From Candidatus Nomurabacteria bacterium RIFCSPHIGHO2_12_FULL_42_19 (GTDB lineage: Bacteria; Patescibacteriota; Minisyncoccia; Phycocordibacterales; UBA9973), in assembly GCA_001786955.1 (NCBI GenBank), contig MFUM01000009.1, positions 552-64,551 on the forward strand: a stretch of DNA of 64,000 bases, written 5' to 3'. The number at the start of each line of letters is the position of its first letter. Position 1 is the stretch's first letter. Below, in pieces: positions 10,513-61,875 of the stretch. The translations under genes were made by a program, and so were the position numbers. The notes below the pieces were generated by a model. The model was not told the DNA's origin, did no database searches, and saw only the letters and a program-made list of their open reading frames with translations.

Positions 10513-10637
10513 ATATTATATATATTTATCTACATAATAATGTATTCGACCCCCTCCCTTGGAGAGTTTAACCTGCTTTGGTGATGTAATTATACCATTT
10601 TGCGGTTTTTTCAAAAAACAAATAAGGCTCAAAAAAA

Positions 10638-10989: not shown

Positions 10990-11583
10990 ATGGACAAAAC
11001 GCAAAAACTCGAAAATCTGCACAAGAAATGGATAGCGGAATGCCAGTGCGAATTGAAAAAAACCGCGACCCAGGCGGTACCGGGCGTCGGCAATGCCGAG
11101 GCGGAAATAGTTTTTATCGGCGAGGCGCCGGGAAAATCGGAAGATGAAAAAGGCGAACCTTTTGTCGGCGCGGCGGGAAAATTCTTGGACGAAATGCTGG
11201 CGGAAATAAAATTGAGACGAGAAAACATATATATCACGAACATCGTAAAATACCGCCCACCGAACAATCGCGATCCCTTGCCGGAGGAAAAAGCATCGTG
11301 CCGGGAGTGGCTCCTGGAAGAGCTGAAAATAATTTCGCCCAAGCTGATAATATTCCTGGGCCGTCACGCGATGAATAATTTTTTTCCCGACCAGCAAATA
11401 TCCGGAGCTCACGGAAAATTATTAATCAAGCCATTTAAGGGCATGTCTACTAAATACTTCTTCTCTCTTTATCATCCGGCTGCGGCTCTGTATGACGGTT
11501 CAATGCGCGAGACTTTAATGGAAGATTTCAAAAAAATCCCGAAGGTTTTGGAAGAAATCGAAAAACGCCAAAAAAACAAATAA
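10990..11583 (+). CDS. Uracil-DNA glycosylase, family 4
   Basis: GEAPGKSEDEKGEPFVGAAGKFL motif, and a C-terminal HPAA motif (LYHPAAALY). Confidence 0.85.
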   Translation: MDKTQKLENLHKKWIAECQCELKKTATQAVPGVGNAEAEIVFIGEAPGKSEDEKGEPFVGAAGKFLDEMLAEIKLRRENIYITNIVKYRPPNNRDPLPEEKASCREWLLEELKIISPKLIIFLGRHAMNNFFPDQQISGAHGKLLIKPFKGMSTKYFFSLYHPAAALYDGSMRETLMEDFKKIPKVLEEIEKRQKNK

Positions 11584-15076: not shown

Positions 15077-15436
15077 TCACTTTTTAAAATCGTACTCTTT
15101 TGCCAACTTGAAAATCTTGAAACCGTTTTTTATTTTTATCTTTTCAATGTAGTCTAGAAATTCTTTAGGTAACGGAGATGGTCCAACCCATACACTTTTT
15201 TGAATCATAGAATAATTAAATTTTTTCAAATGCCAGCGGAGCCATTCCCTTTCGGCTTTTTTAGTTTCCGGAATATCGAACATCACTATTAGATTTTTGG
15301 GAGCGTTTTGGTCAAATTTGAAATGAAATTGTTTTAAAGAATCTATTTTCTTTTTTATATATTTTTGACCTTTAAGAGTTATCATCAGCCCCGCATCACT
15401 ATGTTCTATAAAACCAGTTTTACGAATGTAGGACAA
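15077..15436 (-). CDS. Orphan Cas2-like protein (Cas2/VapD-fold C-terminal region with a roughly 45-aa N-terminal extension)
   Basis: The C-terminal segment LIVMFDIPETKKAEREWLRWHLKKFNYSMIQKSVWVG matches the Cas2 pattern hydrophobic strand-D-I-...-RR-LRR-L-K-...-G-x-x-Q-SVF. No cas1 or CRISPR array is present in the window. Confidence 0.35.
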   Translation of the reverse strand: MSYIRKTGFIEHSDAGLMITLKGQKYIKKKIDSLKQFHFKFDQNAPKNLIVMFDIPETKKAEREWLRWHLKKFNYSMIQKSVWVGPSPLPKEFLDYIEKIKIKNGFKIFKLAKEYDFKK

Positions 15437-15580
15437 AGTTCCGCTTAAACAATTCTAAGAATAATTTTTGAATTTTGGAATACCAAAAAGATTCACACGG
15501 CTTCCTTTATATCTCAAAGACGTGGCACTTAACTCTTTTAAAATTTCATAAACAAGGCTCACGAGTTATATTATATCACA

Positions 15581-15621
15581 AATACTAATAAATCTGCGAT
15601 AGCAGAGTTATTAGTAAATAA
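15581..15621. repeat. 40-nt palindromic repeat (copy 2) upstream of the Cas2-like gene and of tRNA-Val
   Basis: aatactaataaatctgcgatagcagagttattagtaaat has the same core ctgcgatagcaga and the same tactaa/ttagta arms as copy 1. Confidence 0.65.
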
Positions 15622-15694
15622 TAGTTTGTTAATTAAAACATTATTTTCCTGTACTTATTTGAAAAATTAATGGAAAATGCTATAAATAAACAAT

Positions 15695-15767
15695 GGGCGG
15701 TTAGCTCAGTTGGTAGAGCGTGTCTTTGACGTAGACAAGGCCACAGGTCCGAATCCTGTACCGCCCA
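15695..15767 (+). tRNA. tRNA-Val (anticodon GAC)
   Basis: GGGCGGTTAGCTCAGTTGGTAGAGCG-TGTCT-TTGACGT-AGACA-AGGCC-ACAGG-TCCGAAT-CCTGT-ACCGCCC-A. It ends 1 nt before the tsaD ATG. Confidence 0.85.
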
Positions 15768-15768
15768 C

Positions 15769-16845
15769 ATGAGAATTTTAAGCATTGAAACATCCTGCGA
15801 CGACACGGGGATAAGCATAATGGAGGCAAAAGGGGGCGTTCTAAACGCTTCTTTTAAAATCCTGGCAAATAATTCAAATTCACAAATAAAAATCCACATT
15901 CCTTATGGCGGAGTTTATCCGGCATTGGCCAAAAGAGAACATAATAAAAATTTGCCGATTCTTCTGGAAAAAACATTAAAAGAAGCGAAATTAAAAAATA
16001 GAAAATCTCCCGTGGATTTGATTGTCGTCACTCACGGACCGGGGCTGGAAATCGCGCTTTGGACAGGCATTGTTTTCGCCAAAGAATTGGCAAAAAAATG
16101 GAATGTTCCTTTGATGCCCGTAAATCATATGGAGGGGCATATATTTTCAGTATTTGGAAAACAAAAAGGTGAATTTTTAATACCTAAAATAAAGTTCCCT
16201 GCTCTTTCTTTGCTGGTTTCCGGAGGACATACGGAATTGGTTTTGATGAAAAATTTTATGCAATATAAAATCATAGGCGAAACTCTGGATGATGCTGTCG
16301 GGGAAACATTTGACAAGGTCGCAAGAATGCTCGGCCTTCTCTATCCCGGCGGGCCGGAGATTTCCAAACTGGCCGAATTTCTACGGCGAAAAGAAAAACA
16401 AGCTTCGGAGATTAGTTTTTCGGTAACTCTCCCCCGCCCTATGCTTTATTCTAAAAACTTTGATTTCTCTTTTTCGGGACTTAAAACCGCTGTTCTATAT
16501 TTGATCAGAGACATTGGCAAACCGGATGAAAAGACAAAAGCGCAAATTGCCCTGGAATTTGAAAACGCGGTTATTGAATGTCTCGTTCACAAGACAGCCA
16601 AAGCCGTTGAAAAACACGGGATTAAAACTTTAATTGTTGCCGGCGGAGTTGCCGCCAACAAACATCTAAGAAATGAAGTGAAAAAACTTGAAGATAAAAA
16701 AATAAAATTATTTTTTCCGATTAAAGAACTTTCAACTGACAATTCTATCATGATTGGTATAGCTGGATATTTTAACTATATCAAAAACAAAAAGAAAACT
16801 CTAAAAGCAGGCAACATCAAAGCAACTGGCAATCTAAGGCTTTAA
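15769..16845 (+). CDS. tsaD: tRNA N6-adenosine threonylcarbamoyltransferase TsaD (Kae1/Gcp)
   Basis: N-terminus MRILSIETSCDDTGISIM and an ASKH-fold metal site (HMEGH). Confidence 0.9.
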   Translation: MRILSIETSCDDTGISIMEAKGGVLNASFKILANNSNSQIKIHIPYGGVYPALAKREHNKNLPILLEKTLKEAKLKNRKSPVDLIVVTHGPGLEIALWTGIVFAKELAKKWNVPLMPVNHMEGHIFSVFGKQKGEFLIPKIKFPALSLLVSGGHTELVLMKNFMQYKIIGETLDDAVGETFDKVARMLGLLYPGGPEISKLAEFLRRKEKQASEISFSVTLPRPMLYSKNFDFSFSGLKTAVLYLIRDIGKPDEKTKAQIALEFENAVIECLVHKTAKAVEKHGIKTLIVAGGVAANKHLRNEVKKLEDKKIKLFFPIKELSTDNSIMIGIAGYFNYIKNKKKTLKAGNIKATGNLRL

Positions 16846-21615: not shown

Positions 21616-21697
21616 ATGCCTGGGTATTTATATACCGAATGAGTCCCGACGCATTTAGGTCGGGAAGCCGACTGAAACGTCGGCTCTACCCAGGCAT
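21616..21697 (+). repeat. Family-1 double-hairpin element copy A, enclosed by an 11-bp inverted repeat that copies the tRNA-Phe 5' end
   Basis: atgcctgggta (21616-21626) and tacccaggcat (21687-21697) flank hairpin 1 tcccgac-gcatttag-gtcggga (21644-21665) and hairpin 2 agccgac-tgaaac-gtcggct (21666-21685). Confidence 0.75.
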
Positions 21698-21957: not shown

Positions 21958-21966
21958 AAAACTGAG

Positions 21967-22020
21967 TCCCGACGCCCTTTGGGGTCGGGAGGCCGACCTA
22001 GCGTCGGCCCTACCCAGGCA
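21967..22020 (+). repeat. Family-1 double-hairpin element copy B, ending in a third copy of the tRNA-Phe 5'-end 11-mer
   Basis: tcccgac-gccctttgggg-tcggga, then ggccgac-ctagc-gtcggcc, then ctacccaggca. Outer pairs covary relative to copy A (a-t changed to g-c). Confidence 0.75.
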
Positions 22021-22025
22021 ATTAC

Positions 22026-25518: not shown

Positions 25519-26781
25519 TTAATAATTGGTAATCTGTATTAACCTTTTGTATTTTACCATTCTTTCGGGTTTTGTCGGAGCGCCGGCTTTTAATCCAAAA
25601 CAATTAAAGGCATAAGCCAAATCAGCGATAAAATCATCGTCGGTTTCTTCGCCCCGGTGGCTGATAATTATTTCAATGTTATTTTCCCGGGCCAATCTCA
25701 TTGTTTCAAGGGTTTCGGTCAGTGTGCCGATTTGATTTGGCTTGATGATTACCGCATTTATACTCCCCTTTTCTATCGCTTTTTTAAGAAGCGTCTTATT
25801 TGAAACAGTTAAATCATCCCCCACTATCAATGAGTTCCTGTTTTTCTCCTTCAGTTCCCTGAAACTTTCAAAATCTTCTTCGTCAAACGGATCTTCAATG
25901 GAAAATAAATTAAATTCGTTAATCAGAGATTCATAGAGCTCCATCAGTTCTTTTTTGGAAATATCTTCCCCGCTGATTTTATAAATGCCATTCCCGCTTG
26001 CGCGGACAGGTTCATAAAAAGACGAAGCGGCGGCATCCAGAGCCAGCCGAACTTTATCCTGCAAATTATTTTGCCTGATAGCCTCAGTTAAAAAAACAAG
26101 CGGCTTCCAAACATCCGCGACTTTCAGGGCGAAACCTCCCTCGTCGCCCAATATAAGAGATTCTTCTCCCAAATCCCTGCCAATAATTTTTCTCAGCGTA
26201 TCCTGTATTTTAATTCCAATACCGACAGCTTCGGAAATATTCTCCGTATCGGGCATGATAAGATATTCCTGAAAAGCTAAAACACTGCCGGCGTGCTTGC
26301 CGCCTTCAAGCAGATTCATAAAAAGATATGGTGCTTTGCGCGAGGGTTTTATTTCCGCCAGAGTTTGCAAATATTGATACACTTCTTGGCCGGTAACTTT
26401 GGCCGCTGCTTTTACGCAGGCAATACTGACACCAATCATGGAATTACCGCCTAAATTGTTTTTATTCGGAGTGCCGTCCAGTTCAAGCATAATTTTATCT
26501 ACTTCTTTTTGGTTTAAAATATCTTTGCCGATCAGGGCTTTTGATATTATTTCATTTACGTTAAAAATCGCCTTTCTGTTTTCCATGACTCGCGCCTCAT
26601 GAATGCCCGTGCTTGCTCCGGACGGTACGGAAAAACTATCCGATATATCCCCGGCCCCCGCCTTCGCTAAAGCTTCGGACGGGCAAGCAAACACTGTCAC
26701 TTTTATTGTCGGATTTCCTCGCGAATCTTTAATTTCTTCCGCTTCGATTTTACTAATCGGATAATTAAATTCCGGAATCAT
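25519..26781 (-). CDS. eno: Enolase
   Basis: SVPSGASTGIHEA plus C-terminal barrel motifs (IKPNQIGTLTE). Somewhat divergent. Confidence 0.85.
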   Translation of the reverse strand: MIPEFNYPISKIEAEEIKDSRGNPTIKVTVFACPSEALAKAGAGDISDSFSVPSGASTGIHEARVMENRKAIFNVNEIISKALIGKDILNQKEVDKIMLELDGTPNKNNLGGNSMIGVSIACVKAAAKVTGQEVYQYLQTLAEIKPSRKAPYLFMNLLEGGKHAGSVLAFQEYLIMPDTENISEAVGIGIKIQDTLRKIIGRDLGEESLILGDEGGFALKVADVWKPLVFLTEAIRQNNLQDKVRLALDAAASSFYEPVRASGNGIYKISGEDISKKELMELYESLINEFNLFSIEDPFDEEDFESFRELKEKNRNSLIVGDDLTVSNKTLLKKAIEKGSINAVIIKPNQIGTLTETLETMRLARENNIEIIISHRGEETDDDFIADLAYAFNCFGLKAGAPTKPERMVKYKRLIQITNY

Positions 26782-31464: not shown

Positions 31465-33459
31465 TTATTCCCCGGCGCGCATCATCTTCAGAAACACATC
31501 TTGGGGAATGTTTACCCTGCCTCTTTCTTTCATTTTTTTCTTTCCCTTTTTCTGTTTTTCGCGAAGTTTCATTTTGCGGGTAATATCTCCCCCATACATG
31601 TGCTGGGTTACATCTTTTTTCATGCCGGAAAGAGTGCGGGAAGAAATGATGCGCCCGAGCGCCTTGCCTTGAATTTTTAAAGTAAACATCTGCCGGGGCA
31701 GCAGGCTTTCCAGTTTTTCAACCGCTTTTTCGGCTTCTTCGGCCGCTCTTTTTTTAGAAACAACCCGGGAAAAAGCCGGCACGATTTCATCGGCGACTAT
31801 CAGGTCAAGTCTGGTAACATTCGCTTCGCGCATTTCCCCTATTTCATAAGATATGGAGCCATAGCCCGATGAAACGCTTTTTAATTCATCAAAGAAATTT
31901 CTCATAAGTTCACGGAGGGGCATTTCTACAGATATAGTTGAACGGTTATCCCCGAAATTTTCCGTGTTGCCAACCTCCCCTTCGTGGTCAAAAAGCAATT
32001 GCATGATATTGCCGATATATTTTACCGGAGTGATGATTTTCAATCGGACCCAAGGTTCGAATACGGCCTCTATATTGCCGTCATCAGGAAAAAAATACGG
32101 AGAATAAACCCGCACACTTTTTCTCTGGTCGTTTTTCAAACGCGCTTCTGGCGCAACCAGAGAATTAGTGTGCGGGTAAATCTTTTCTTGATTGCTATTT
32201 TTCATTAAAACCTCGTAGGTGATGGATGGAGTAGTGATTACTAAATCCAAATTAAACTCGCGTTTCAGCCTTTCCGTGATGATTTCAAGATGGAGCATTC
32301 CTAAAAATCCGCATCTGAATCCCCGGCCCAGTGAACCGGAAGATTCTTCTTCGTATGAAAAAGCCGAATCGGAAAGCTTTAGTTTCCCCAATGAAAGCTT
32401 TAATTCCGCAAAATCATCCGCATCTTCCGGAAAAACCGAAGCCCAGACAACCGGCAAGGGTTGCATATAGCCCTCAAAAGCCGGCAATGGATTTTTAAAC
32501 ATAGTAATAGTATCTCCCACCGAAGCTATACCCGGTTTCTTTATGCCGGTAACGATATAGCCCGTTTCTCCCGAAGAAAGAAAATCGGCGGGTGTTTCTT
32601 CGGGGGAAAAAGTTCCGACTTCTAGAGCGGTGAATTTTTCGCCCGAAACTGCAAAAAGCAAAGATTCGCCTTTTGTCATCTTGCCGTCAAATACCCGCAC
32701 AAAAACTATTACTCCCCGATGATTTGAATATTTAAAATCAAAAACCAATGCACGGAGCACCCCCTCCGCCTTTGGCACCTCCCCCTTGGCAAGGAGGAGG
32801 GTGGAAGTCGGCTCCGGAACACGTTTTACGACTTCCTGCAGAAGATTCTCCACTCCTTCTCCGGTACGCCCGGAGACCAGCAAAATTTCATTTGGATCGC
32901 AGTTTAAAAGCTTTACAACTTCTTCTTTAACTTCATTTATTCTGGCTAAAGGGGAATCAATTTTAGAGAGCACTGGAATGATTTTAAGGCCATCCAAGCG
33001 CGCCATAGCAAGCGTGGTAAGCGTCTGAGCCTGCACCCCCTGAGTTGAATCTATAAGCAAAATAGAGCCCTCTACGGCCTTTAGGGCGCGGGACACTTCG
33101 TAGGAGAAATCTATATGCCCGGGAGTATCAATTAGATTTAAAATGTAAACCCCATCCTCAGCCTTCCCCGAGGGGGAAGGAATTTGCCCCTCTCCTTTGG
33201 GGAGGGGTTGGGGAGGGGTGTATTTCATGCGGACGGGCTGCATTTTGATGGTAATTCCCCTTTCGCGCTCAAGTTCCATGGAATCCAGAACCTGCTCGCG
33301 CATCTTGCGTGTTTCTATGGTGTGTGTAATTTCAAGCATTCTATCCGCTAAGGTGCTCTTGCCGTGGTCAATATGCGCGATGATAGAAAAATTTCTGATG
33401 TGTTTTATATCCATAAATAAATTTTTTAATCCAAAAATCCGCCGGTTTGGTGGTTCCAT
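31465..33459 (-). CDS. lepA: Elongation factor 4 (LepA), carrying an in-frame 19-aa insertion between G2 and G3
   Basis: IIAHIDHGKST...DTPGH...NKID and the LepA-specific C-terminal domain. TPPQPLPKGEGQIPSPSGK, between RGITIKMQPVRMKY and AEDGVYILNLIDTPGH, is absent from canonical LepA. Confidence 0.9.
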   Translation of the reverse strand: MEPPNRRIFGLKNLFMDIKHIRNFSIIAHIDHGKSTLADRMLEITHTIETRKMREQVLDSMELERERGITIKMQPVRMKYTPPQPLPKGEGQIPSPSGKAEDGVYILNLIDTPGHIDFSYEVSRALKAVEGSILLIDSTQGVQAQTLTTLAMARLDGLKIIPVLSKIDSPLARINEVKEEVVKLLNCDPNEILLVSGRTGEGVENLLQEVVKRVPEPTSTLLLAKGEVPKAEGVLRALVFDFKYSNHRGVIVFVRVFDGKMTKGESLLFAVSGEKFTALEVGTFSPEETPADFLSSGETGYIVTGIKKPGIASVGDTITMFKNPLPAFEGYMQPLPVVWASVFPEDADDFAELKLSLGKLKLSDSAFSYEEESSGSLGRGFRCGFLGMLHLEIITERLKREFNLDLVITTPSITYEVLMKNSNQEKIYPHTNSLVAPEARLKNDQRKSVRVYSPYFFPDDGNIEAVFEPWVRLKIITPVKYIGNIMQLLFDHEGEVGNTENFGDNRSTISVEMPLRELMRNFFDELKSVSSGYGSISYEIGEMREANVTRLDLIVADEIVPAFSRVVSKKRAAEEAEKAVEKLESLLPRQMFTLKIQGKALGRIISSRTLSGMKKDVTQHMYGGDITRKMKLREKQKKGKKKMKERGRVNIPQDVFLKMMRAGE
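33162..33220. repeat. Family-2 GC-rich double-hairpin element copy E, lying inside the lepA CDS in frame
   Basis: ccttcccc-gag-ggggaagg, then aatttg, then cccctctcc-ttt-ggggagggg (one G-U pair), then ttggggagggg. The 57 nt match the 19 extra LepA codons. Confidence 0.7.
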
Positions 33460-39439: not shown

Positions 39440-42433
39440 CTAAACAACTATGTTGATAAGTTTGTCCTTCACATAAACCACCTTTTTTACGTGTTTCCCG
39501 GCTATTTGTTTCAAAATAGCTTCATTCTCAAGGGTTTTTTTCTTCACTATTTCTTCATTATCATCGGTTTGTATTATAATTTCGGTTCTGACTTTACCAT
39601 TTACTTGCACCACAATTTTTATTTCTTCGTCTTCTATCAAATCAGGAGACCACTCCGGCCAGCTGGAAAGATAAATAGTGTTTTTTTCGCCAAGCATATT
39701 CCACAACTCTTCCGCCACATGCGGCGCAAATGGCGCAAGAATTTGCAGAAATTTCTTGTAATCTTTCAAATCTAAAGTCGGACTTTTTTGAAGATCTAGA
39801 GCAAAGGCAGATTCCATCTTCGTCGCTAAAATCATCATACTGGAAATTGCAGTATTGAAATGCATCTCTTCAATGTCTTCTGAGACTTTTTTGATGGTTT
39901 TATGAAGAATTTTTTTTAATGAAAGAAAATCGGAAGAATTTTGAATGGTCTGGTTGAGACCGCTCTTATTTTGAACACTAGCGCGGGCGACCCGAGGACC
40001 TGAAAAATTTTTCTGATTTTCTGAAATTTTAATACCTAGTCTCCAAACCTTTTCAATAAACCTCCTGGCTCCGATAATGCTTTCTGTCGACCAGGCGACT
40101 GACTGGCTAAATGGCCCCATAAACATTTCATAGACCCGTAGCGTATCCGCGCCGTATGTTTTTACAATTTCGTCCGGATTAATCACATTCCCCAAGCTTT
40201 TGGACATCTTTACTCCCCCTTCACCCAAAATCATGCCATGCGAAGTGCGTTTTTTGTACGGCTCGGTCGTGGGCACTAATCCCAAGTCAAACAAGAATTT
40301 ATGCCAAAAACGTGAATATAAAAGATGGAGTGTTGTGTGTTCATTGCCCCCGTTATACCAATCCACCGGTGTCCAATATTTTAAATTTTTCTTGCTCGCA
40401 AATTCTTTATTGTTTTTCGAATCAGCATAACGAAGATAGTACCAGCTAGAACCTGCCCAGTTCGGCATCGTATCGGTTTCTCTTTTGGCTTTGCCTTTGC
40501 ATTTCGGACATTGGACATTAACCCATTTTGCAATATTGGCAAGCGGTGATTCTCCGCTCTCCGTTGGCTGATAATTTTTTACTTTTGGAAGCTTTACCGG
40601 TAAGTCCTTCTCCGGCACCGGAACCATTCCACAATCTTCACAATGAATTACCGGTATTGGCTCACCCCAGTATCGTTGCCTGGAAAAAACCCAATCGCGA
40701 AGCTTGAAAGTGGTTTTTTCTTTCCCCCCGACAAACTTTATGATTTCCTTTTTTGCTTTTTCAGAATCCATTCTGTCAAATTTACCAGAATTTACGAGCA
40801 ATCCTGACCCTACATATGCAATTTCTTTTATTTTGCCTAGAAAACCATTCCAAATTGAATCCCGTTCCGAAAGACTTAAAAAATCATATACTTCGTTTTT
40901 CTTCTTCCATAAAACATTGTGCTTTGCATTCTCCTCTGGAGAAATAGGTATCTGTTCCCCGTTTTGAAGTTCAAAATATAGATAACGAAACCGAGCGAGT
41001 ACGTTTGTTTTTTTCATCTGATGATAAAAATTAACAAACGAGAAACCGCCAACTTGTCGAATAAATTTTGTATTTGTGTACCCTGATTCTTCCCGAATTT
41101 CTCGTTTCCCTGTTTCAATAAAATCTTCCCCTTTTTCAATTCCGCCAGAAACCATTGAGCGAACGTCAATATGATTTTTCCATTGGATGCACAGATATTC
41201 ATCCTTATCCCAGTGTTTAACAATGCACATCACAGCATCACGGTCTACATACGGCATATCGTTGCGAACTATCTGTCCAGGTATAGGACTTTTAGAGACA
41301 GGCGCAACTACTTGGCGAATCGGCAAATCGTATTTTTTCGCAAATTCAAAATCTCTTTCGTCGTGCGCCGGCACAGCCATAATCGCTCCTGTGCCGTAAG
41401 ATGCAAGCACATAATCCGCTACCCAAACAGGAATCTCCTCCTTAGTCGCCGGGTTAACTGCTTTTACTCCCTTTAATTCAATACCTGTTTTTATTTTATC
41501 GGGAGCTGTCCTTTCGATTTCCGTCTTTTTTTTATTTGCTCCGATATATTGCAACACTTCGGCCCAATTTGAAATTCTAGATTTAACTTTGGAAATCAGT
41601 GTATGTTCAGGAGAAAGCACTAAATAAGTTGCTCCGAAGATAGTATCTGGACGAGTGGTAAAAACCTTAATTTTTTCAAGATTTGGTATATTTTCTTTCG
41701 CGCACGGGCAAAAACTGAATTCTATTTCCGCCCCCTCGCTCTTTCCTATCCAATTCCTCTGCGCGAGCTTTATTTGCGGCAGATAGTCTACGTCGTCTAA
41801 ATCTTTATCCAGCCTCTCGGCATATTTTGTAATCGCGAGCATCCATTGTTCTTTTTCCCTTTTCACGACCGGCGTCCCGCAGCGTTCGCAGTTTCCGCCG
41901 ACTACTTCTTCATTCGCCAGGCCAATTTTGCATGATGGACACCAATTAATAGCCATCTTGGCTTTATACGCCAGGCCTTTTTTAAAAAACTGCAAAAATA
42001 TCCATTGCGTCCATTTATAATATTTGGGGTCAGTGGTATTCACTTCCCGAGACCAATCAAAGGAGATACCAAGCGATTTTATTTGCTGGCGGAAATTATC
42101 GCTATTTTTTTTTGTGACAAAATGCGGGTCCTTGCCTGTTTTTATTGCGTAATTTTCCGTCGGTAAACCAAATGCATCCCAGCCGATTGGATAAAGCACA
42201 TTATAACCCTCCAATCTCCTTTTTCTAGATATTATATCCATGCCGATATACGGCCGCGGATGCCCGACGTGCAGCCCGTCGCCCGAAGGATACGGAAATT
42301 CAATCAGACTGTAATATTTAGGTTTCTTAGAAAAATCTTCGGCATGATAAATTCCGATCTTTTCCCATTCTCTCTGCCATTTTGTTTCCAGTTTTTTATG
42401 GTCGTATTCTTTCATGGTGGATTTATAATACAC
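39440..42433 (-). CDS. leuS: Leucyl-tRNA synthetase with an embedded Nudix-hydrolase domain
   Basis: HVGHP (HIGH), KMSKS, both zinc knuckles (CPSCK...CERCG and CEDCG...CPKCKG) and the editing-domain motifs TTRPDT and GTGAIMAVPAHD. About 155 extra residues sit between KYDLPIRQVV and GSGLLVNSGKFD and contain the Nudix box GGIEKGEDFIETGKREIREESGY. Confidence 0.9.
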   Translation of the reverse strand: MYYKSTMKEYDHKKLETKWQREWEKIGIYHAEDFSKKPKYYSLIEFPYPSGDGLHVGHPRPYIGMDIISRKRRLEGYNVLYPIGWDAFGLPTENYAIKTGKDPHFVTKKNSDNFRQQIKSLGISFDWSREVNTTDPKYYKWTQWIFLQFFKKGLAYKAKMAINWCPSCKIGLANEEVVGGNCERCGTPVVKREKEQWMLAITKYAERLDKDLDDVDYLPQIKLAQRNWIGKSEGAEIEFSFCPCAKENIPNLEKIKVFTTRPDTIFGATYLVLSPEHTLISKVKSRISNWAEVLQYIGANKKKTEIERTAPDKIKTGIELKGVKAVNPATKEEIPVWVADYVLASYGTGAIMAVPAHDERDFEFAKKYDLPIRQVVAPVSKSPIPGQIVRNDMPYVDRDAVMCIVKHWDKDEYLCIQWKNHIDVRSMVSGGIEKGEDFIETGKREIREESGYTNTKFIRQVGGFSFVNFYHQMKKTNVLARFRYLYFELQNGEQIPISPEENAKHNVLWKKKNEVYDFLSLSERDSIWNGFLGKIKEIAYVGSGLLVNSGKFDRMDSEKAKKEIIKFVGGKEKTTFKLRDWVFSRQRYWGEPIPVIHCEDCGMVPVPEKDLPVKLPKVKNYQPTESGESPLANIAKWVNVQCPKCKGKAKRETDTMPNWAGSSWYYLRYADSKNNKEFASKKNLKYWTPVDWYNGGNEHTTLHLLYSRFWHKFLFDLGLVPTTEPYKKRTSHGMILGEGGVKMSKSLGNVINPDEIVKTYGADTLRVYEMFMGPFSQSVAWSTESIIGARRFIEKVWRLGIKISENQKNFSGPRVARASVQNKSGLNQTIQNSSDFLSLKKILHKTIKKVSEDIEEMHFNTAISSMMILATKMESAFALDLQKSPTLDLKDYKKFLQILAPFAPHVAEELWNMLGEKNTIYLSSWPEWSPDLIEDEEIKIVVQVNGKVRTEIIIQTDDNEEIVKKKTLENEAILKQIAGKHVKKVVYVKDKLINIVV

Positions 42434-52909: not shown

Positions 52910-53854
52910 TTATGCGCCGCAACTTCCGCCTCCTTTTTGTTCTTGTGGTTGTATTTGCGACAAGACTCCCTGATATCCCGACGCGCTGGAAAATTCGGCT
53001 GAGAGGATTTTCTTCGGGTCAGCGGTGTTCCAATCCATATTTTTGGATTTAAAAAAAACCGCGACGGCTTTATATTGGCCCGGGAACCAAAGAGTATTTA
53101 CCTGCAGCGCAACTTTATACATATCCGTTTCGGAAACTCCCTGTGAAGCCATAAGTTCCAACAATCCGAGCATCGCCATGCCGTGGTTGCAGTCCGGAAA
53201 ATAGGTGGAATTATCGCAGCAGGGCCTATATATATCCTTAGAAACTTTTTCAATCAGCATCTGCTGTTCCGGCGTAAGCGTTATAAATGAATGCATGCCG
53301 TAATGCGCCATTGCATTTCCTTTTGCCAGTGTCCAGCCGCCGGTAGATGCGAAATTCCCCGCCTTCGCCAAGGCTTCCGCCGTCACTGAAGTTTTGGCGG
53401 ACAAGTCGGCGGGCAAGCCCGCATCGCCATATGTTACCATTGGTCCTTCTGTAAGAATCGGATTTTTGTTTCCCAATCCAAGAGCCCAAAGCATATTCAG
53501 CATTACGCCGGAATTTTCGGAATTAATTACGAGATTCCCGTTATCAGAATTGTAAAGTAATTTTTTGTCCGACTCGGAAAGCCCGCCGCGTCCGCTGTAA
53601 AGATTTTCAAATTTTTCCTTGTCAATCACTCCAGCTTCCGTCATTTTTACTCCCATATCCCCCCATCGGACCGGCAGCTCTGTTCCATTTTTGAGGGAAA
53701 TTTCATCTTGCGGATTCAGCCGCGCCGGATGCCATAAAATTTCCTGGCTCTTTAATCGCGCCGTATAAATCCAAGCTCCGGAAATCAAAGCCGCCACGAT
53801 AATAATGCTCACTATCGGGGGTAGATTTTTTTCTTTTTTTGTTTCATTTTCCAT
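52910..53854 (-). CDS. Hypothetical membrane-anchored periplasmic protein with a Cys cluster (PCCDNSTYFPDCNHG)
   Basis: 314 aa with an N-terminal TM helix and a C-terminal GGGSCGA. No family was recognised. Confidence 0.3.
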   Translation of the reverse strand: MENETKKEKNLPPIVSIIIVAALISGAWIYTARLKSQEILWHPARLNPQDEISLKNGTELPVRWGDMGVKMTEAGVIDKEKFENLYSGRGGLSESDKKLLYNSDNGNLVINSENSGVMLNMLWALGLGNKNPILTEGPMVTYGDAGLPADLSAKTSVTAEALAKAGNFASTGGWTLAKGNAMAHYGMHSFITLTPEQQMLIEKVSKDIYRPCCDNSTYFPDCNHGMAMLGLLELMASQGVSETDMYKVALQVNTLWFPGQYKAVAVFFKSKNMDWNTADPKKILSAEFSSASGYQGVLSQIQPQEQKGGGSCGA

Positions 53855-53872
53855 GTTTTTCTTGTAATTTAA

Positions 53873-53913
53873 CCCCGACGCCTTTGGGTCGGGGTCCCGA
53901 CTTTTCGTCGGGA
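53873..53913. repeat. Family-1 double-hairpin element copy C (intergenic)
   Basis: ccccgac-gcctttgg-gtcgggg followed by tcccgac-ttttc-gtcggga. Confidence 0.75.
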
Positions 53914-56809: not shown

Positions 56810-59137
56810 TTATAATTTCTTACTTTTAATACGCAAAGAATTCCCGACCACCGATACACTGGACATTGCCATGGCAAATCCTGCAAAGACCGGTGAAAGA
56901 AGCCAGCCGAATATTGGATAAAATAATCCGGCTGCCAAAGGGATACCTACTATATTATATATGAAAGCCCAGAAAAGATTTTGCTTGATTCCCCGCATTG
57001 TTATTTTTGAAAGTTTTATCGCTTTTACAAGTTTTGAAATATCTCCGCCGAGAAGCGTAATGCCGGCTGACTCAATGGCCACATCGGTTCCCGTGCCCAT
57101 GGCAATACCCACGTCGGCCTGCGCCAGAGCCGGAGCATCATTCACGCCATCGCCAGCCATAGCGACAATATGTCCTTTTTCTTGTAATTCTTTAATCTTC
57201 AGCAGCTTGTCCGCCGGCAGGACATGAGCGACAATATCGTCAATGCCGACCAGCGACGCCATATATTTTGCCGCTTTTTTGTCGTCTCCGGTAAGCATAA
57301 TTATTTTGATACCGAGCTTATGAAGGTCGAGAACAGCTTGTTTTGATTCAGTTTTTATTTCATCTGCCACCATTACAAAACCGAGAACTTTTTCTTTAGT
57401 TGCAAGAATAATCGGGGTTTTACCCTGCGCCGTATATTGTTCCAATTTTAAATTATCAAAAGGAAGCTTTAAGTCTTCTATAAGTTTTGCATTTCCGGCA
57501 AAATATTCTTTCCCATCTATTGTTCCTTTTATGCCTTTTCCTTGTATACTCTCAAAATTAAAAACATTTTTTAGTGGAATATTTTTTCTTGCCCCGGAGG
57601 AAGTACCCTTTCCTTCGGGGTCTTGCGCATAATTGACAATCGCATGGGCAATCGGATGTTCTGATTTTTTCTCAAGCGACGCAAGGATTGATATGATTTC
57701 TTCGTTTTTAGTGTTGATAGAAAGACTAACAAGGTCAACGAGAGTCGGCTTGCCGATAGTAATCGTCCCGGTTTTATCAACAATAACTGTATCGACTTTA
57801 TGAAGCTTCTCAAGCGTCGCCGCGTCTTTAATTAAAATACCTTCTCTGGCGCCTTTGCCGACCCCCACAATGATTGCCGTGGGTGTCGCTAAGCCCAATG
57901 CGCAGGGACAAGCAATAACGAGCACTCCCACAAAAGAGACAAGACCGTATGATAATGCCTGCGAAAATCCGAGCGGGCCGGTTCCAAAAAGAAGCCAGGC
58001 GCCAAGAGCAATGAACGAGACAATAAGCACGATTGGCACAAAGATGCTTGATATTTTATCGGCCAGGGCCTGAATCGGCGCTTTGCTACCCTGGGCCTCC
58101 TCCACCATTTTTATTATATGCGCGAGCAGTGTTTCTGAGCCGACTTTTGTTGCCTTGAATGTGAACGACCCGGTTGTGTTTATGGTAGCGGCAACCACAT
58201 TATCTCCGACTTTTTTTTGAGCCGGCATCGGTTCTCCGGTAACCATTGATTCGTCAATAAACGAGCCTCCTTCGGTAATTACTCCATCAACAGGAATTTT
58301 TGCTCCCGGTTTTACGATAATCAAATCACCGTGTTTTACCTCATTTACGGGTATTTCCATTTCTTTTCCGTTTTGAATGACTAAGGCGGTTTTCGCCTGG
58401 AGATTCAAAAGTTTTTCTATGGCATCACCGGTTTTTAATTTTGATTTGGCTTCCAAATATTTACCAAGCGCAATAAAGGTAATAACGATAATCGTTACAT
58501 CATAATAAGTTGCATCAACATTTATGAATTGTCTGAGCGGTTCTTCAAATGCGGCAACTGCAAAACTGTACAGATATGCGGTCAATGTGCCGATACCGAT
58601 AAGTGTATCCATATTCGCTTTGCCGTAACGGAGAAAACGGTAAAAACCGAGAAGATACGGTTTGCCCACGACAAAAAGAATATATGTGGCCATTAAAGGC
58701 AGAAGATGGTGGAAAAATTCCTTAATCACATAGCTCATTGCGGGAACCATATTGTATTGCGCCAAAATGTCCCAGCCTAAAATTAAGGCGCTGATTATCG
58801 CAAGCGGGATTGCAGAGATGACTTTTATTTTCATATCTTTGATTTCCGCCAGCTTTTCAGCTTTGGATTGATTAAATCCGAGATGCGCTGCATGTTCGTC
58901 AGCGGACATATTCATAGATTCTGCGGTTGGAATTATTAAAGAGTAGCCAAGCGGTTCTATTTTTTTAGAAAGGGCTTCCGGGTTGGTTTTTGATTCGTTA
59001 AAAGATATTTTCGCCATTTCTGTCCCATAATTTACCTCAACAGAATCAACGCCGTCAATTTTCTTTATATCTTTTTCAATGATAGCGGCACATGAGGCGC
59101 AGTGCATTCCTTTAATTTTATATGTTTCTTTTTTCAT
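56810..59137 (-). CDS. copA: Copper-translocating P1B-type ATPase
   Basis: N-terminal HMA ([12 protein letters not shown]), CPC in TM6 ([11 protein letters not shown]), DKTGTIT, HP motif, and GDGVNDAP. Confidence 0.9.
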
Positions 59138-59156
59138 AATTTTTACCCCCTCCTCG

Positions 59157-59220
59157 CCTCCCCCAAAGGGAGAGGTCTTGAATTCTTTCCCTCTCCTTTG
59201 AGGAGGGTCAGGGAGGGGTT
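59157..59220. repeat. Family-2 GC-rich double-hairpin element copy F, in the csoR-copA intergenic region
   Basis: cctcccc-caaa-gggagagg, then a spacer, then ccctctcc-ttt-gaggaggg, then tca-gggagggg. The architecture is the same as the lepA copy. Confidence 0.7.
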
Positions 59221-59483
59221 TATTTTCTCTTTAGCTTGTAAACTTTCAATATTTCTTTTGTTGCTTCTCCGGTCCGGCCTTTTTGGATTTGATTGACCAG
59301 GCAAGTCCCCAAATGGCTTGCCATAAGTTCATCTTCAATATTAGAAAGCCCCTGCTTCACAGCTGAAGTCTGGGTAATAATATCAATGCAATATACTCCT
59401 TCATTTATCATTTTCTGCAGGCCGCGAACCTGACCTTCAATAATCTTAAGCCGGCGGACCAGTTTTGATTTATTATCATGCAT
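59220..59483 (-). CDS. csoR: CsoR/RcnR-family metal-sensing repressor (copper-sensitive operon repressor)
   Basis: 87 aa with the DUF156 pattern and the Cys/His ligands YCIDII...SHLGTC. Confidence 0.8.
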
Positions 59484-60888: not shown

Positions 60889-61875
60889 TCATTTTAATTT
60901 ATCTTTTAAATTTTTCAGCATTTCCGCAGTCATTTTTTCCAGATTAAATTCGGGCTTCCAGCCCCAGTCTGCGCGGGCCGCGCTGTCATCAATGCTTTTC
61001 GGCCAGGAATCGGCAATCTTTTGGCGGAGATCCGGCATATAGTTTATTTCAAAAGAAGGAATATGTTTTTTGATTTCTTCGGCAATTTCCCGCGGCGAGA
61101 AACTCATGGCGGACAAATTATACGCCATGCGGGATTGCACTTTCTCAACCGGAACCTCCATTATTTCTATCGTGGCGCGGATTGCATCATCCATATACAT
61201 CATCGGGAGATAAGTATTCTCTGAAAGAAAACATGTATATTTTCCCTGTTTCAATGCTTCGTAATATATTTCCACGGCATAGTCGGTAGTGCCCCCTCCC
61301 GGTTCGCTCTTCCAGCTGATAAGCCCCGGATAACGCACGCTACGGACATCAAGACCAAAGCGCCTATTGTAATATTGGCACAATAATTCTCCGGTATATT
61401 TCGTAATTCCATACATAGTAGTCGGTTCAATAATTGTTTTTTGCGGAGTATTTTCTCTGGGAGCTGTCACGCCAAAGACGGCGATAGAACTCGGCCAGAA
61501 TAATTTAATTTTTTCATCCACGCTCAAGTCAAGAATTTGCCGCAGGCTTCCCATATTAAGTTCCCAGGCAAGTTTTGGATTTTTCTCGCCGGTTGCCGAC
61601 AGCAACGCCGCTAGCAAATAGATTGTTGTTATTTTTTTCCCGACGCTTTCGGTCGGGACCCCGACCCCAGAGGGCGTCGGGGCTTTCACTAGAGCACGAA
61701 CAGCCTCCGCATCCATTGCATCTAATATCGCAAAAGGGCCGGTACCTAAGAGTAGCGGATGTTCTTCTTTAATGTCGGTGGCCAAAACATTCTCATTGCC
61801 GTATTTTTTCCGCAACGCCAAAGTTAGCTCTACCCCTATTTGCCCGCATGCTCCGATGACTAAAATCTTTTCCAT
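60889..61875 (-). CDS. tdh: L-threonine 3-dehydrogenase (NAD-dependent epimerase/dehydratase-type), carrying an in-frame repeat insertion
   Basis: Rossmann motif ILVIGACGQIG and catalytic YxxxK (YGITKYTGE). It is adjacent to kbl. The 16-aa segment APTPSGVGVPTESVGK between LVK and KITTIYLLAALLSA is absent from homologs. Confidence 0.8.
   Translation of the reverse strand: MEKILVIGACGQIGVELTLALRKKYGNENVLATDIKEEHPLLLGTGPFAILDAMDAEAVRALVKAPTPSGVGVPTESVGKKITTIYLLAALLSATGEKNPKLAWELNMGSLRQILDLSVDEKIKLFWPSSIAVFGVTAPRENTPQKTIIEPTTMYGITKYTGELLCQYYNRRFGLDVRSVRYPGLISWKSEPGGGTTDYAVEIYYEALKQGKYTCFLSENTYLPMMYMDDAIRATIEIMEVPVEKVQSRMAYNLSAMSFSPREIAEEIKKHIPSFEINYMPDLRQKIADSWPKSIDDSAARADWGWKPEFNLEKMTAEMLKNLKDKLK
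61638..61682. repeat. Family-1 double-hairpin element copy D, inside the tdh CDS in frame
   Basis: tcccgac-gctttcg-gtcggga followed by ccccgac-cccagagggc-gtcgggg. The reverse complement translates as PTPSGVGVPTESVG in the tdh frame. Confidence 0.75.

Follow-up and report, generated by a model that had tools for sequence, protein, structure and literature searches.

A short G-rich hairpin repeat occurs in frame in lepA and between csoR and copA of a Candidatus Nomurabacteria genome and shares its ends with in-frame DUF559 nuclease cassettes

A stretch of 64,000 nucleotides (nt) from Candidatus Nomurabacteria bacterium RIFCSPHIGHO2_12_FULL_42_19 (contig MFUM01000009.1), called the window here, contains two copies of one GC-rich palindromic repeat, one of which is read in frame inside lepA, the gene for elongation factor 4 (EF4), and the other of which lies between csoR and copA. 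Both copies had been proposed in an earlier note on this DNA and are confirmed here. Each copy is a pair of hairpin units in inverted orientation (a doublet), filled and empty versions of both sites exist among relatives, and the same units form the ends of longer in-frame cassettes that encode a DUF559 (Vsr-like) nuclease domain in other bacteria. We therefore regard the window copies, with a probability of about 65%, as nuclease-less, non-autonomous doublets of the DUF559 cassette family, comparable to miniature transposable elements with inverted repeats (MITEs). A third palindromic in-frame insert in lepA (32107 to 32178), the occurrence of the unit across phyla, and the link to DUF559 go beyond the earlier note.

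The unit consists of a hairpin, CCCTCTCC-TTTG-GGGAGGG, a spacer of 2 to 3 nt, and the tail GGGGAGGGG, and it is about 31 nt long. The doublets at 33149 to 33219 (lepA) and 59145 to 59219 (copA) measure 71 and 75 nt, respectively, and the lepA copy aligns end to end with the copA copy. The 19-nt core of the unit, CCCTCTCCTTTGRGGAGGG, has exactly two occurrences in the window (33188 and 59189), compared with 0.06 expected from shuffled sequences, and the similarity of the two copies runs past this core into GGGAGGGGTKTATTT (repeat family D19). The window thus holds two doublets without an open reading frame (ORF) of their own and one single unit, the latter also in lepA, and two of these three copies are coding. 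None of the six frames of the consensus unit contains a stop codon, and in-frame reading therefore needs only a length divisible by three. An Rfam search of the window at gathering thresholds returned six tRNAs only, and permissive scans of both copies gave only hairpin-shaped matches below threshold, for the most part to precursors of miRNAs; the element belongs to no described RNA family.

The host gene lepA (31465 to 33414, minus strand) encodes 649 residues from the ATG at 33414, with the five Pfam domains expected of EF4. Its doublet (33149 to 33219, minus strand) lies at site 1, in the β2-β3 loop of the G domain, where codons 33148 to 33219 encode TPPQPLPKGEGQIPSPSGKAEDGV, and the insert is read in frame as TPPQPLPKGEGQIPSPSGK(AEDGV) between the motifs RGITIK (G2) and DTPGH (G3). 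The plus strand of the doublet reads ACCCCATCCTCAG-CCTTCCCCGAGGGGGAAGG-AATTTG-CCCCTCTCCTTTGGGGAGGGG-TT-GGGGAGGGG-T. Its best-preserved unit (33187 to 33219, plus strand; nhmmer E = 4.5e-8 with a profile built from 131 units) has the structure CCCCTCTCC-TTT-GGGGAGGGG, TT, GGGGAGGGG-T, in which hairpin 2, CCCCTCTCC-TTT-GGGGAGGGG, occupies 33187 to 33207 with 9-nt arms that are 89% complementary, and the tail GGGGAGGGG at 33210 to 33218 directly repeats the 3′ arm of that hairpin. The other, inverted unit contains a variant hairpin 1, CCTTCCCC-GAG-GGGGAAGG (33162 to 33180, plus strand), with 8-nt arms that are 100% complementary, and the following GGAATTTG is a degenerate GAATTC centre, as seen from alignment to the doublets of two relatives, L127 and L028. 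The mRNA of the insert is predicted to fold with −37.5 kcal/mol on the sense strand. In addition, the template strand of lepA has a canonical G-quadruplex motif of four tracts, GGGGAGGGGTTGGGGAGGGG (33199 to 33218); its first two tracts also serve as the 3′ arm of hairpin 2, so that the two structures would be in competition. The earlier note had described this copy as 57 nt encoding 19 residues; its in-frame position holds, but the element is 71 nt long with a net gain of 54 nt, or 18 residues.

Site 1 was compared across the 120 closest LepA proteins, which are 78 to 100% identical and mostly from Paceibacteria and Nomurabacteria. The span from GITIK to DTPGH is 90 nt in the empty gene of L125, 144 nt in the window and L126, and 147 nt in L127 and L028, which gives a net gain of 54 to 57 nt over the empty orthologue at the filled sites. 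Doublets are recognisable at the filled site 1 of the window, L126, L127, and L028, and a single unit is present in L026. The three relatives with the same insert keep palindromic DNA there, in keeping with the inserted element that the earlier note had seen in it. In comparisons of the window with L126, L127, or L028, identity is 82 to 88% in the insert, 71 to 79% in the flanking lepA DNA, and 34 to 46% at the third codon positions of that DNA, the last being near saturation. If the loop were neutral and had descended from a common ancestor, it would not be expected to outdo silent sites in conservation. The greater conservation of the insert suggests that the copies are younger than the lineages that carry them or that the DNA or RNA sequence is constrained.

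The insertion site itself is tolerant. Extra residues at site 1 are found in 62 of the 120 LepA proteins and come from unrelated families of palindromic inserts, for example, TPPQPLPKGEG.., HPALKGTPPQQGGEDSSPPKLGGVPEGGG, TSPPAPLLSGEGG, and PLLSEEGV. On a neighbour-joining tree of the 120 orthologues, built from insert-free columns, the insert families are interleaved with empty sites, which indicates repeated gain or loss at LepA. The insert had been taken to interrupt a universally conserved G2-G3 segment, whereas the alignment of the 120 proteins shows that it replaces a loop of variable length; it thus appears to sit in a variable, permissive surface loop and not in conserved residues. Placement by sequence alignment to the solved EF4 structure of Thermus thermophilus (5imq) shows an 18-residue gap at site 1, opposite window LepA residues 67 to 84. 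An AlphaFold2 model of the window LepA (82 close homologues) indicates no more than that the insert lies between two strands, 61 to 65 and 90 to 94; this model is poor (mean pLDDT, 48.6), and the alignment to 5imq was used instead.

The second doublet (59145 to 59219) is intergenic, with its units inverted around GAATTC at 59180 to 59185 (nhmmer E = 6e-9) and with arms of 29 nt that are 72% complementary. Its upstream neighbour is a gene for a CsoR-type metal-sensing repressor (59220 to 59483, minus strand; Pfam PF02583, E = 1.3e-24), and its downstream neighbour is a gene for a CopA-type P1B ATPase (56810 to 59137, minus strand; Pfam HMA, E1-E2_ATPase, and Hydrolase). The doublet fills the spacer from the csoR stop codon (59220 to 59222) to 7 nt before the copA ATG (59135 to 59137), at which point its terminal GGAGGGGGT ends. 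Eighty related copA loci were fetched, and the region upstream of copA was read in the 35 closest; in 27 of these, the copA ATG lies at most 12 nt from the csoR stop codon, as in agagaaaataattt-ATG. The window junction reads aaaataa-(75 nt)-aaaaatt-ATG, with the 75 nt exactly at the point where csoR and copA meet, and the copA copy is a clean insertion. It is predicted to fold with −43 kcal/mol (z = −3.9), a fold in which its terminal GGAGG, situated 11 nt upstream of the copA start codon, is paired with CCTCC; a secondary effect of the doublet on copA expression is possible. Among CopA relatives, no in-frame insert related to the G-rich unit was found.

The unit is not confined to the window. 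A scan for the exact core in one genome per species found it at at least 120 other loci, which agrees with the expectation of the earlier note that further copies exist. Among the matches listed, the core-bearing isolates belong to Pedobacter, Mucilaginibacter, Flavobacterium, Hymenobacter, and other Bacteroidota, and the core is also present in Ignavibacteria, Cloacimonadota, and several metagenome-assembled genomes of Patescibacteria, including two of Ca. Nomurabacteria. A G3-5-N-G3-5 tract follows the hairpin in 105 of the 139 core instances listed, and in 92 of those 105 it starts 2 to 3 nt past the hairpin, compared with 0.5% of random positions showing the pattern. The units occur both as singlets and as inverted doublets, and of the 144 instances listed from other genomes, 54 fall within long open frames, among them those of L026 and L028 at LepA site 1. 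Viral contigs had the core at only four loci, with no sign of phages as the main carrier. In L029 (12 copies in 8 kb), L060, and L014 (one Prolixibacteraceae contig), one complete unit is contained in each of a series of tandem repeats of about 240 nt.

At several of these loci, inverted units bracket an in-frame DUF559 domain of about 115 to 130 residues. Such cassettes are found in the leucyl-tRNA synthetase (LeuRS) genes of a Paceibacterota bacterium (L046), a Ca. Nomurabacteria bacterium (L104), and a Flavobacterium (L049), in an isoleucyl-tRNA synthetase (IleRS) gene (L053), and in a tgt gene (L084), and the domain matches Pfam PF04480 with E values of 1e-30 to 1e-34 in L046, L053, and L104. 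In a Hymenobacter locus (L119), the DUF559 domain has an upstream unit only, and the open frame ends with the domain. The layout in L046 is AACCCCACCCC..ACCCCTCCCCGAAGGAGAGGGG-GAATTC-(ORF)-CCCTCTCCTTTGGGGAGGG-TT-GGGGAGGGGTT. The GAATTC directly past its left unit is also the centre of the doublets in the window copA copy, L028 lepA, and L097, and the doublet centre in a ksgA-like gene (L054) is GGATTC. The recurrence of the GAATTC centre in nuclease-less doublets of different genes suggests that the doublet itself has spread. The longer elements with the same ends as the window doublets thus encode DUF559 and not a recognised transposase. When three cassettes and their flanks were scanned with Pfam, DUF559 and MTES_1575 were the only domains found, with no Hint/intein domain, and no intron ribozyme reached the Rfam threshold in the window.

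One LeuRS site, before the motif TTRPDT, is found in all three states, being empty in the window and L128, occupied by a solo unit in L055, and occupied by the full cassette in L046, L049, and L104. In the window, the LeuRS region at 41642 to 41761 (minus strand), where the cassette site is empty, is 7 residues longer than in L128 (..FSFCPCAKENIPNLEKIKVFTTRPDT). In L104, a single unit with GAATTC is nested in frame inside the DUF559 ORF of the LeuRS cassette (..LRRNNPSLDLPKGEVKNSKGFHFRRQH..). DUF559 has 21,341 cluster representatives at E ≤ 0.001, and a wider survey covered the best 150 DUF559 relatives of the protein P0121. About 59 of these best 150 are at least 300 residues long, with the domain in mid-protein in nearly all of them, and the hosts among the long proteins include LeuRS, IleRS, Tgt, RsmI, RecJ, TatD, PP2C-type phosphatases, glycosyltransferases, and MetH. 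In the 56 proteins tested, unit-derived peptides were found at the N side of the domain in 46% and at the C side in 43%, compared with 0.5% and 2%, respectively, in controls.

Taken as one family, these elements suggest the following mechanism. The mobile unit would be a purine/pyrimidine-asymmetric hairpin followed, after 2 to 3 nt, by a G4-N-G4 tract. In the full-length form, two inverted units enclose an ORF whose product is a DUF559 nuclease (Vsr-like, PD-(D/E)XK-type). Such a cassette is open throughout in the frame of its host and appears to be translated into an additional domain, there being neither an intron nor an intein for its removal. The window copies would have kept both ends and the short GAATTC centre and lost the nuclease. 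The doublet was probably derived from a DUF559 cassette or mobilised by one in trans, and its spread presumably proceeded in a homing-like manner through nuclease breaks and their repair. In lepA, the doublet is read through as a surface loop of 18 to 24 residues rich in Pro, Gly, Ser, and Glu, and the inserts are probably neutral passengers in LepA. The csoR-copA doublet would have landed in a spacer of near-zero length, where it may now form a stable hairpin in the operon mRNA.

Several observations weigh against this interpretation. A DUF559 gene was found neither in the 64-kb window nor in about 75 kb around lepA of four relatives, and a search for chimeric proteins found no LepA with a DUF559 domain. 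A search with the unit profile (E ≤ 50) of the window and of the same lepA surroundings recovered known copies only. The copy number is low, at 2 to 3 in 64 kb, and the taxonomic picture, drawn from the matches listed, is that of a sample. A target-site duplication was not recognisable at either locus, the copA flanks being A-rich (aaaataa/aaaaatt). About 18 nt, or about 6 residues, of the host loop are replaced in lepA, which is not a simple insertion and therefore not a plain cut-and-paste event. The DUF559 proteins of the cassette type have no characterised member, and no function has been assigned to 3HRL, the closest structure solved. Finally, the relationship may run in either direction, with the doublet arising from the cassette or the cassette homing into a pre-existing doublet.

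The second of these directions leads to an alternative that we consider unlikely, namely, that units and doublets are an independent repeat, similar to REP (repetitive extragenic palindromic) repeats, and that DUF559 genes invade it at the doublet centre, the window copies being uninvaded targets. A dimeric enzyme of the PD-(D/E)XK type would be well matched to a near-palindrome around GAATTC, the doublet centre stays the same from locus to locus, and single units are far more numerous than cassettes, with a DUF559 domain at 9 of 120 loci among the matches listed. However, this explanation does not account for the movement of the units themselves, and GAATTC is absent beside the left unit in L104 and L053. 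Moreover, the left and right units of cassettes keep fixed frames (..LPKGEG.. and ..ALP[LF]GEG[LW]GG.., respectively) across many hosts, which suggests that the ends and the ORF travel as one. It is much less probable that the unit is a REP or REPIN type of repeat moved by a Y1 transposase (RAYT or IS200-like) with DUF559 as a bystander. Hairpin units with a conserved tail and their inverted doublets do resemble REPs and REPINs, and a Y1_Tnp-like gene lies 3.5 kb from lepA in L127. Yet this gene (15376 to 16041) has hairpins of its own on either side, GGTGAGAGC-TTTAG-GCTCTCACC, which are unrelated to the unit, and it has no homologue in the window; since the only nearby Y1 gene has different flanking hairpins, a RAYT mechanism is unlikely. 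No Y1 gene was seen beside any unit, whereas DUF559 is directly bracketed at several independent loci, and REPs are extragenic, whereas the G-rich units are often coding. The IS200/RAYT-like gene of L127 with its hairpins looks like a separate REP-type system.

Two further explanations concern the window copies individually. The lepA insert might be left untranslated if ribosomes skipped the hairpin or if it were excised from the RNA, for which its strong predicted mRNA structure (−37.5 kcal/mol) speaks; GC-rich mobile hairpins in coding regions of the AT-rich mitochondrial genomes of the yeast Magnusiomyces are reportedly bypassed in this way. We hold this to be highly improbable here because inserts of every family keep the frame, which is expected only under read-through: each site 1 insert in the 120 orthologues, whatever its family, is open and a multiple of three, and the DUF559 cassettes of about 130 residues in many host genes are likewise open and frame-keeping. 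It is scarcely credible, finally, that the copies are local inventions with convergent likeness, the LepA loop having arisen by slippage or template switching and the csoR-copA hairpin being a selected regulatory structure, such as an attenuator, a stem sequestering the Shine-Dalgarno sequence, or a G-quadruplex switch. The stable fold of the copA copy (−43 kcal/mol, z = −3.9), the pairing of its terminal GGAGG with CCTCC, and the four-tract quadruplex motif at 33199 to 33218 would fit such a role. Against this stand the exact 19-nt core with its tail at two unrelated window loci and at at least 120 loci in several phyla, the identical doublet centres in different genes, and the clean presence or absence at lepA and copA; a later regulatory role of the copA copy would be secondary. 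The origin of the doublets from, or their mobilisation by, DUF559 cassettes thus remains the preferred explanation.

The elements can be compared with several known systems. Rickettsia palindromic elements (RPEs), reportedly described by Ogata et al. in 2000, are to our knowledge confined to Rickettsiales, and we know of no enzyme associated with them. In-frame repeat insertions are a known phenomenon, with RPEs, which are about 105 to 146 nt long, and BREs as examples (PMC3184786). Like RPEs, the window copies are palindromic repeats of a reduced genome that are found in intergenic spacers as well as in frame within coding sequences, those of essential proteins among them, where they are tolerated as added peptides. 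They differ from RPEs in host taxon, in size (a unit of about 31 nt and a doublet of about 75 nt), in being G-rich and present across phyla, and in their link to a nuclease cassette. They resemble MITEs in their terminal inverted repeats, small size, lack of an ORF, several copies, presence or absence at a site, and the existence of longer elements that have the same ends plus a gene for a protein. They differ in that this gene specifies a DUF559 (Vsr-like) nuclease and not a recognised transposase, in that a target-site duplication could not be recognised, and in the in-frame position of the cassette in its hosts.

In REP/REPIN-RAYT systems, the enzyme gene also lies between two inverted units (PMC3184786), and the hairpin units likewise occur as singlets and inverted doublets. 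The enzyme there is an HUH Y1 transposase and here a PD-(D/E)XK-type DUF559 protein, and REPs are species specific, whereas the G-rich units are nearly identical across phyla. The Vsr-like homing endonuclease family of I-Bth0305I has been grouped with DUF559 (PMC3424549; see also PMC2677866). As with homing endonuclease genes, the nuclease gene adjoins conserved motifs of essential genes (LepA G2-G3, TTRPDT of LeuRS, and IleRS), and filled, decayed, and empty sites are distributed patchily. Unlike in inteins and introns, no splicing module was found, the insert appears to be retained in the protein, and the window copies have no endonuclease ORF; terminal inverted hairpins are a feature of the cassettes and not of homing endonuclease genes. 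GC clusters and double-hairpin elements have reportedly been described from fungal mitochondria by Paquin et al. in 2000 and Lang et al. in 2014. They resemble the present elements as GC-rich hairpins that enter coding regions of AT-rich genomes, often beside mobile endonuclease ORFs, but they are organellar and unrelated in sequence, and in Magnusiomyces they are bypassed rather than translated. In the literature outside subscription journals, we found no description of the unit or of unspliced in-frame DUF559 cassettes with hairpin ends. In-frame repeat insertion and Vsr-like homing endonucleases are thus known, and the hairpin-ended DUF559 cassette element is, we cautiously suggest, new.

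LepA has received further inserts. Its baseline length among the relatives is 600 residues, lengths reach 664 residues, and hot spots other than site 1 lie after core columns 188, 380 to 386, and 437 to 439. The window LepA carries three inserts, at residues 67 to 84, 203 to 213, and 412 to 431, which correspond to two gaps and one unmatched stretch in 5imq. The second is the in-frame single unit at site 2 (32758 to 32802, minus strand), at the junction of the G domain and domain II, which encodes TLLLAKGEVPKAEGV and consists of the hairpin CCTCCTCCTTG-CC-AAGGGGGAGG, a mini-spacer, and GGAGGGGGT; it faces a gap of about 10 residues in 5imq. The in-frame remnant suspected earlier in domain II is therefore real, and it is common to many relatives, which have it as LPLAKGEVPKAEGV. 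The third, at site 3 (32107 to 32178, minus strand), belongs to a different palindromic family with the ends ACCCGCACACT...AGTGTGCGGGT, has arms of 22 nt that are 91% complementary, and encodes YPHTNSLVAPEARLKNDQRKSVRV, of which about 20 residues are unmatched in 5imq. The terminal repeats of this insert recur in L128 lepA (11269 to 11336), which has the same insert, and in L150 (2412 to 2510) they bound an element of about 100 nt at the csoR-copA junction that appears to supply the copA N terminus. At site 1, a LepA fragment (P0196) that came up in the search for chimeric proteins contains a nuclease of another family, PDDEXK_3 (PF13366; E = 4.5e-32), in frame at residues 90 to 203. Its flanks, ..LTQTDTQKSA.. 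and ..LRQSAFSQRGSA.., look palindrome derived, and a nuclease-less form of the P0196 insert may be present in P0042 and P0050, whose inserts (..RQLINADRNTDKDRSISDNQ..) are richer in AT.

Other small repeats are present in the window. Hairpins built on CCCGAC/GTCGGG ("family 1") are located at 21644 to 21665, 21962 to 22021, 53870 to 53903, and 61637 to 61690, and the LepA site 2 peptides SDVGRLDFGR and SGVGHLNSGC of relatives look like translated hairpins similar to this family. A kinship between family 1 and the G-rich unit had been proposed from a shared CCTTTGG loop; this motif occurs 16 times in the window and was rejected as evidence of kinship. A degenerate copy of the unit suggested at 10536 to 10556 was likewise not recovered by the profile search at E ≤ 50. 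The small GC-rich repeat CCCCGCCTTCGCCAAGGCTTCGGCGG (family D16) has three copies, at 929 to 954, 26656 to 26681, and 53357 to 53382, and the LPGRQAG and LSGRPAG inserts at LepA columns 437 to 439 of relatives may be its coding form.

More broadly, and at somewhat less than even odds, the cassettes may represent a cross-phylum class of selfish elements in which small genes for nucleases of the PD-(D/E)XK type (DUF559 and, as a parallel case, PDDEXK_3) with stop-free, G-rich hairpin ends integrate in frame into surface loops beside the most conserved motifs of essential genes, are kept in the mature protein as a third strategy beside introns and inteins, and decay to short coding scars such as the three LepA inserts. 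Alignments and phylogenies of marker proteins, LepA, LeuRS, and IleRS among them, are distorted by the inserts, which also give rise to false ORFs rich in Pro and Gly when genomes are annotated. The state of a site, whether filled, decayed, or empty, could in turn mark recent ancestry in uncultured lineages. If the link to the nuclease holds, it would provide a concrete origin for the many lineage-specific inserts by which conserved proteins are enlarged in Patescibacteria and Bacteroidota and a likely role as selfish nucleases for one branch of DUF559, a large family of unknown function. It would also mean that a nuclease gene can persist unspliced in essential genes by means of ends that translate into flexible linkers in every frame.

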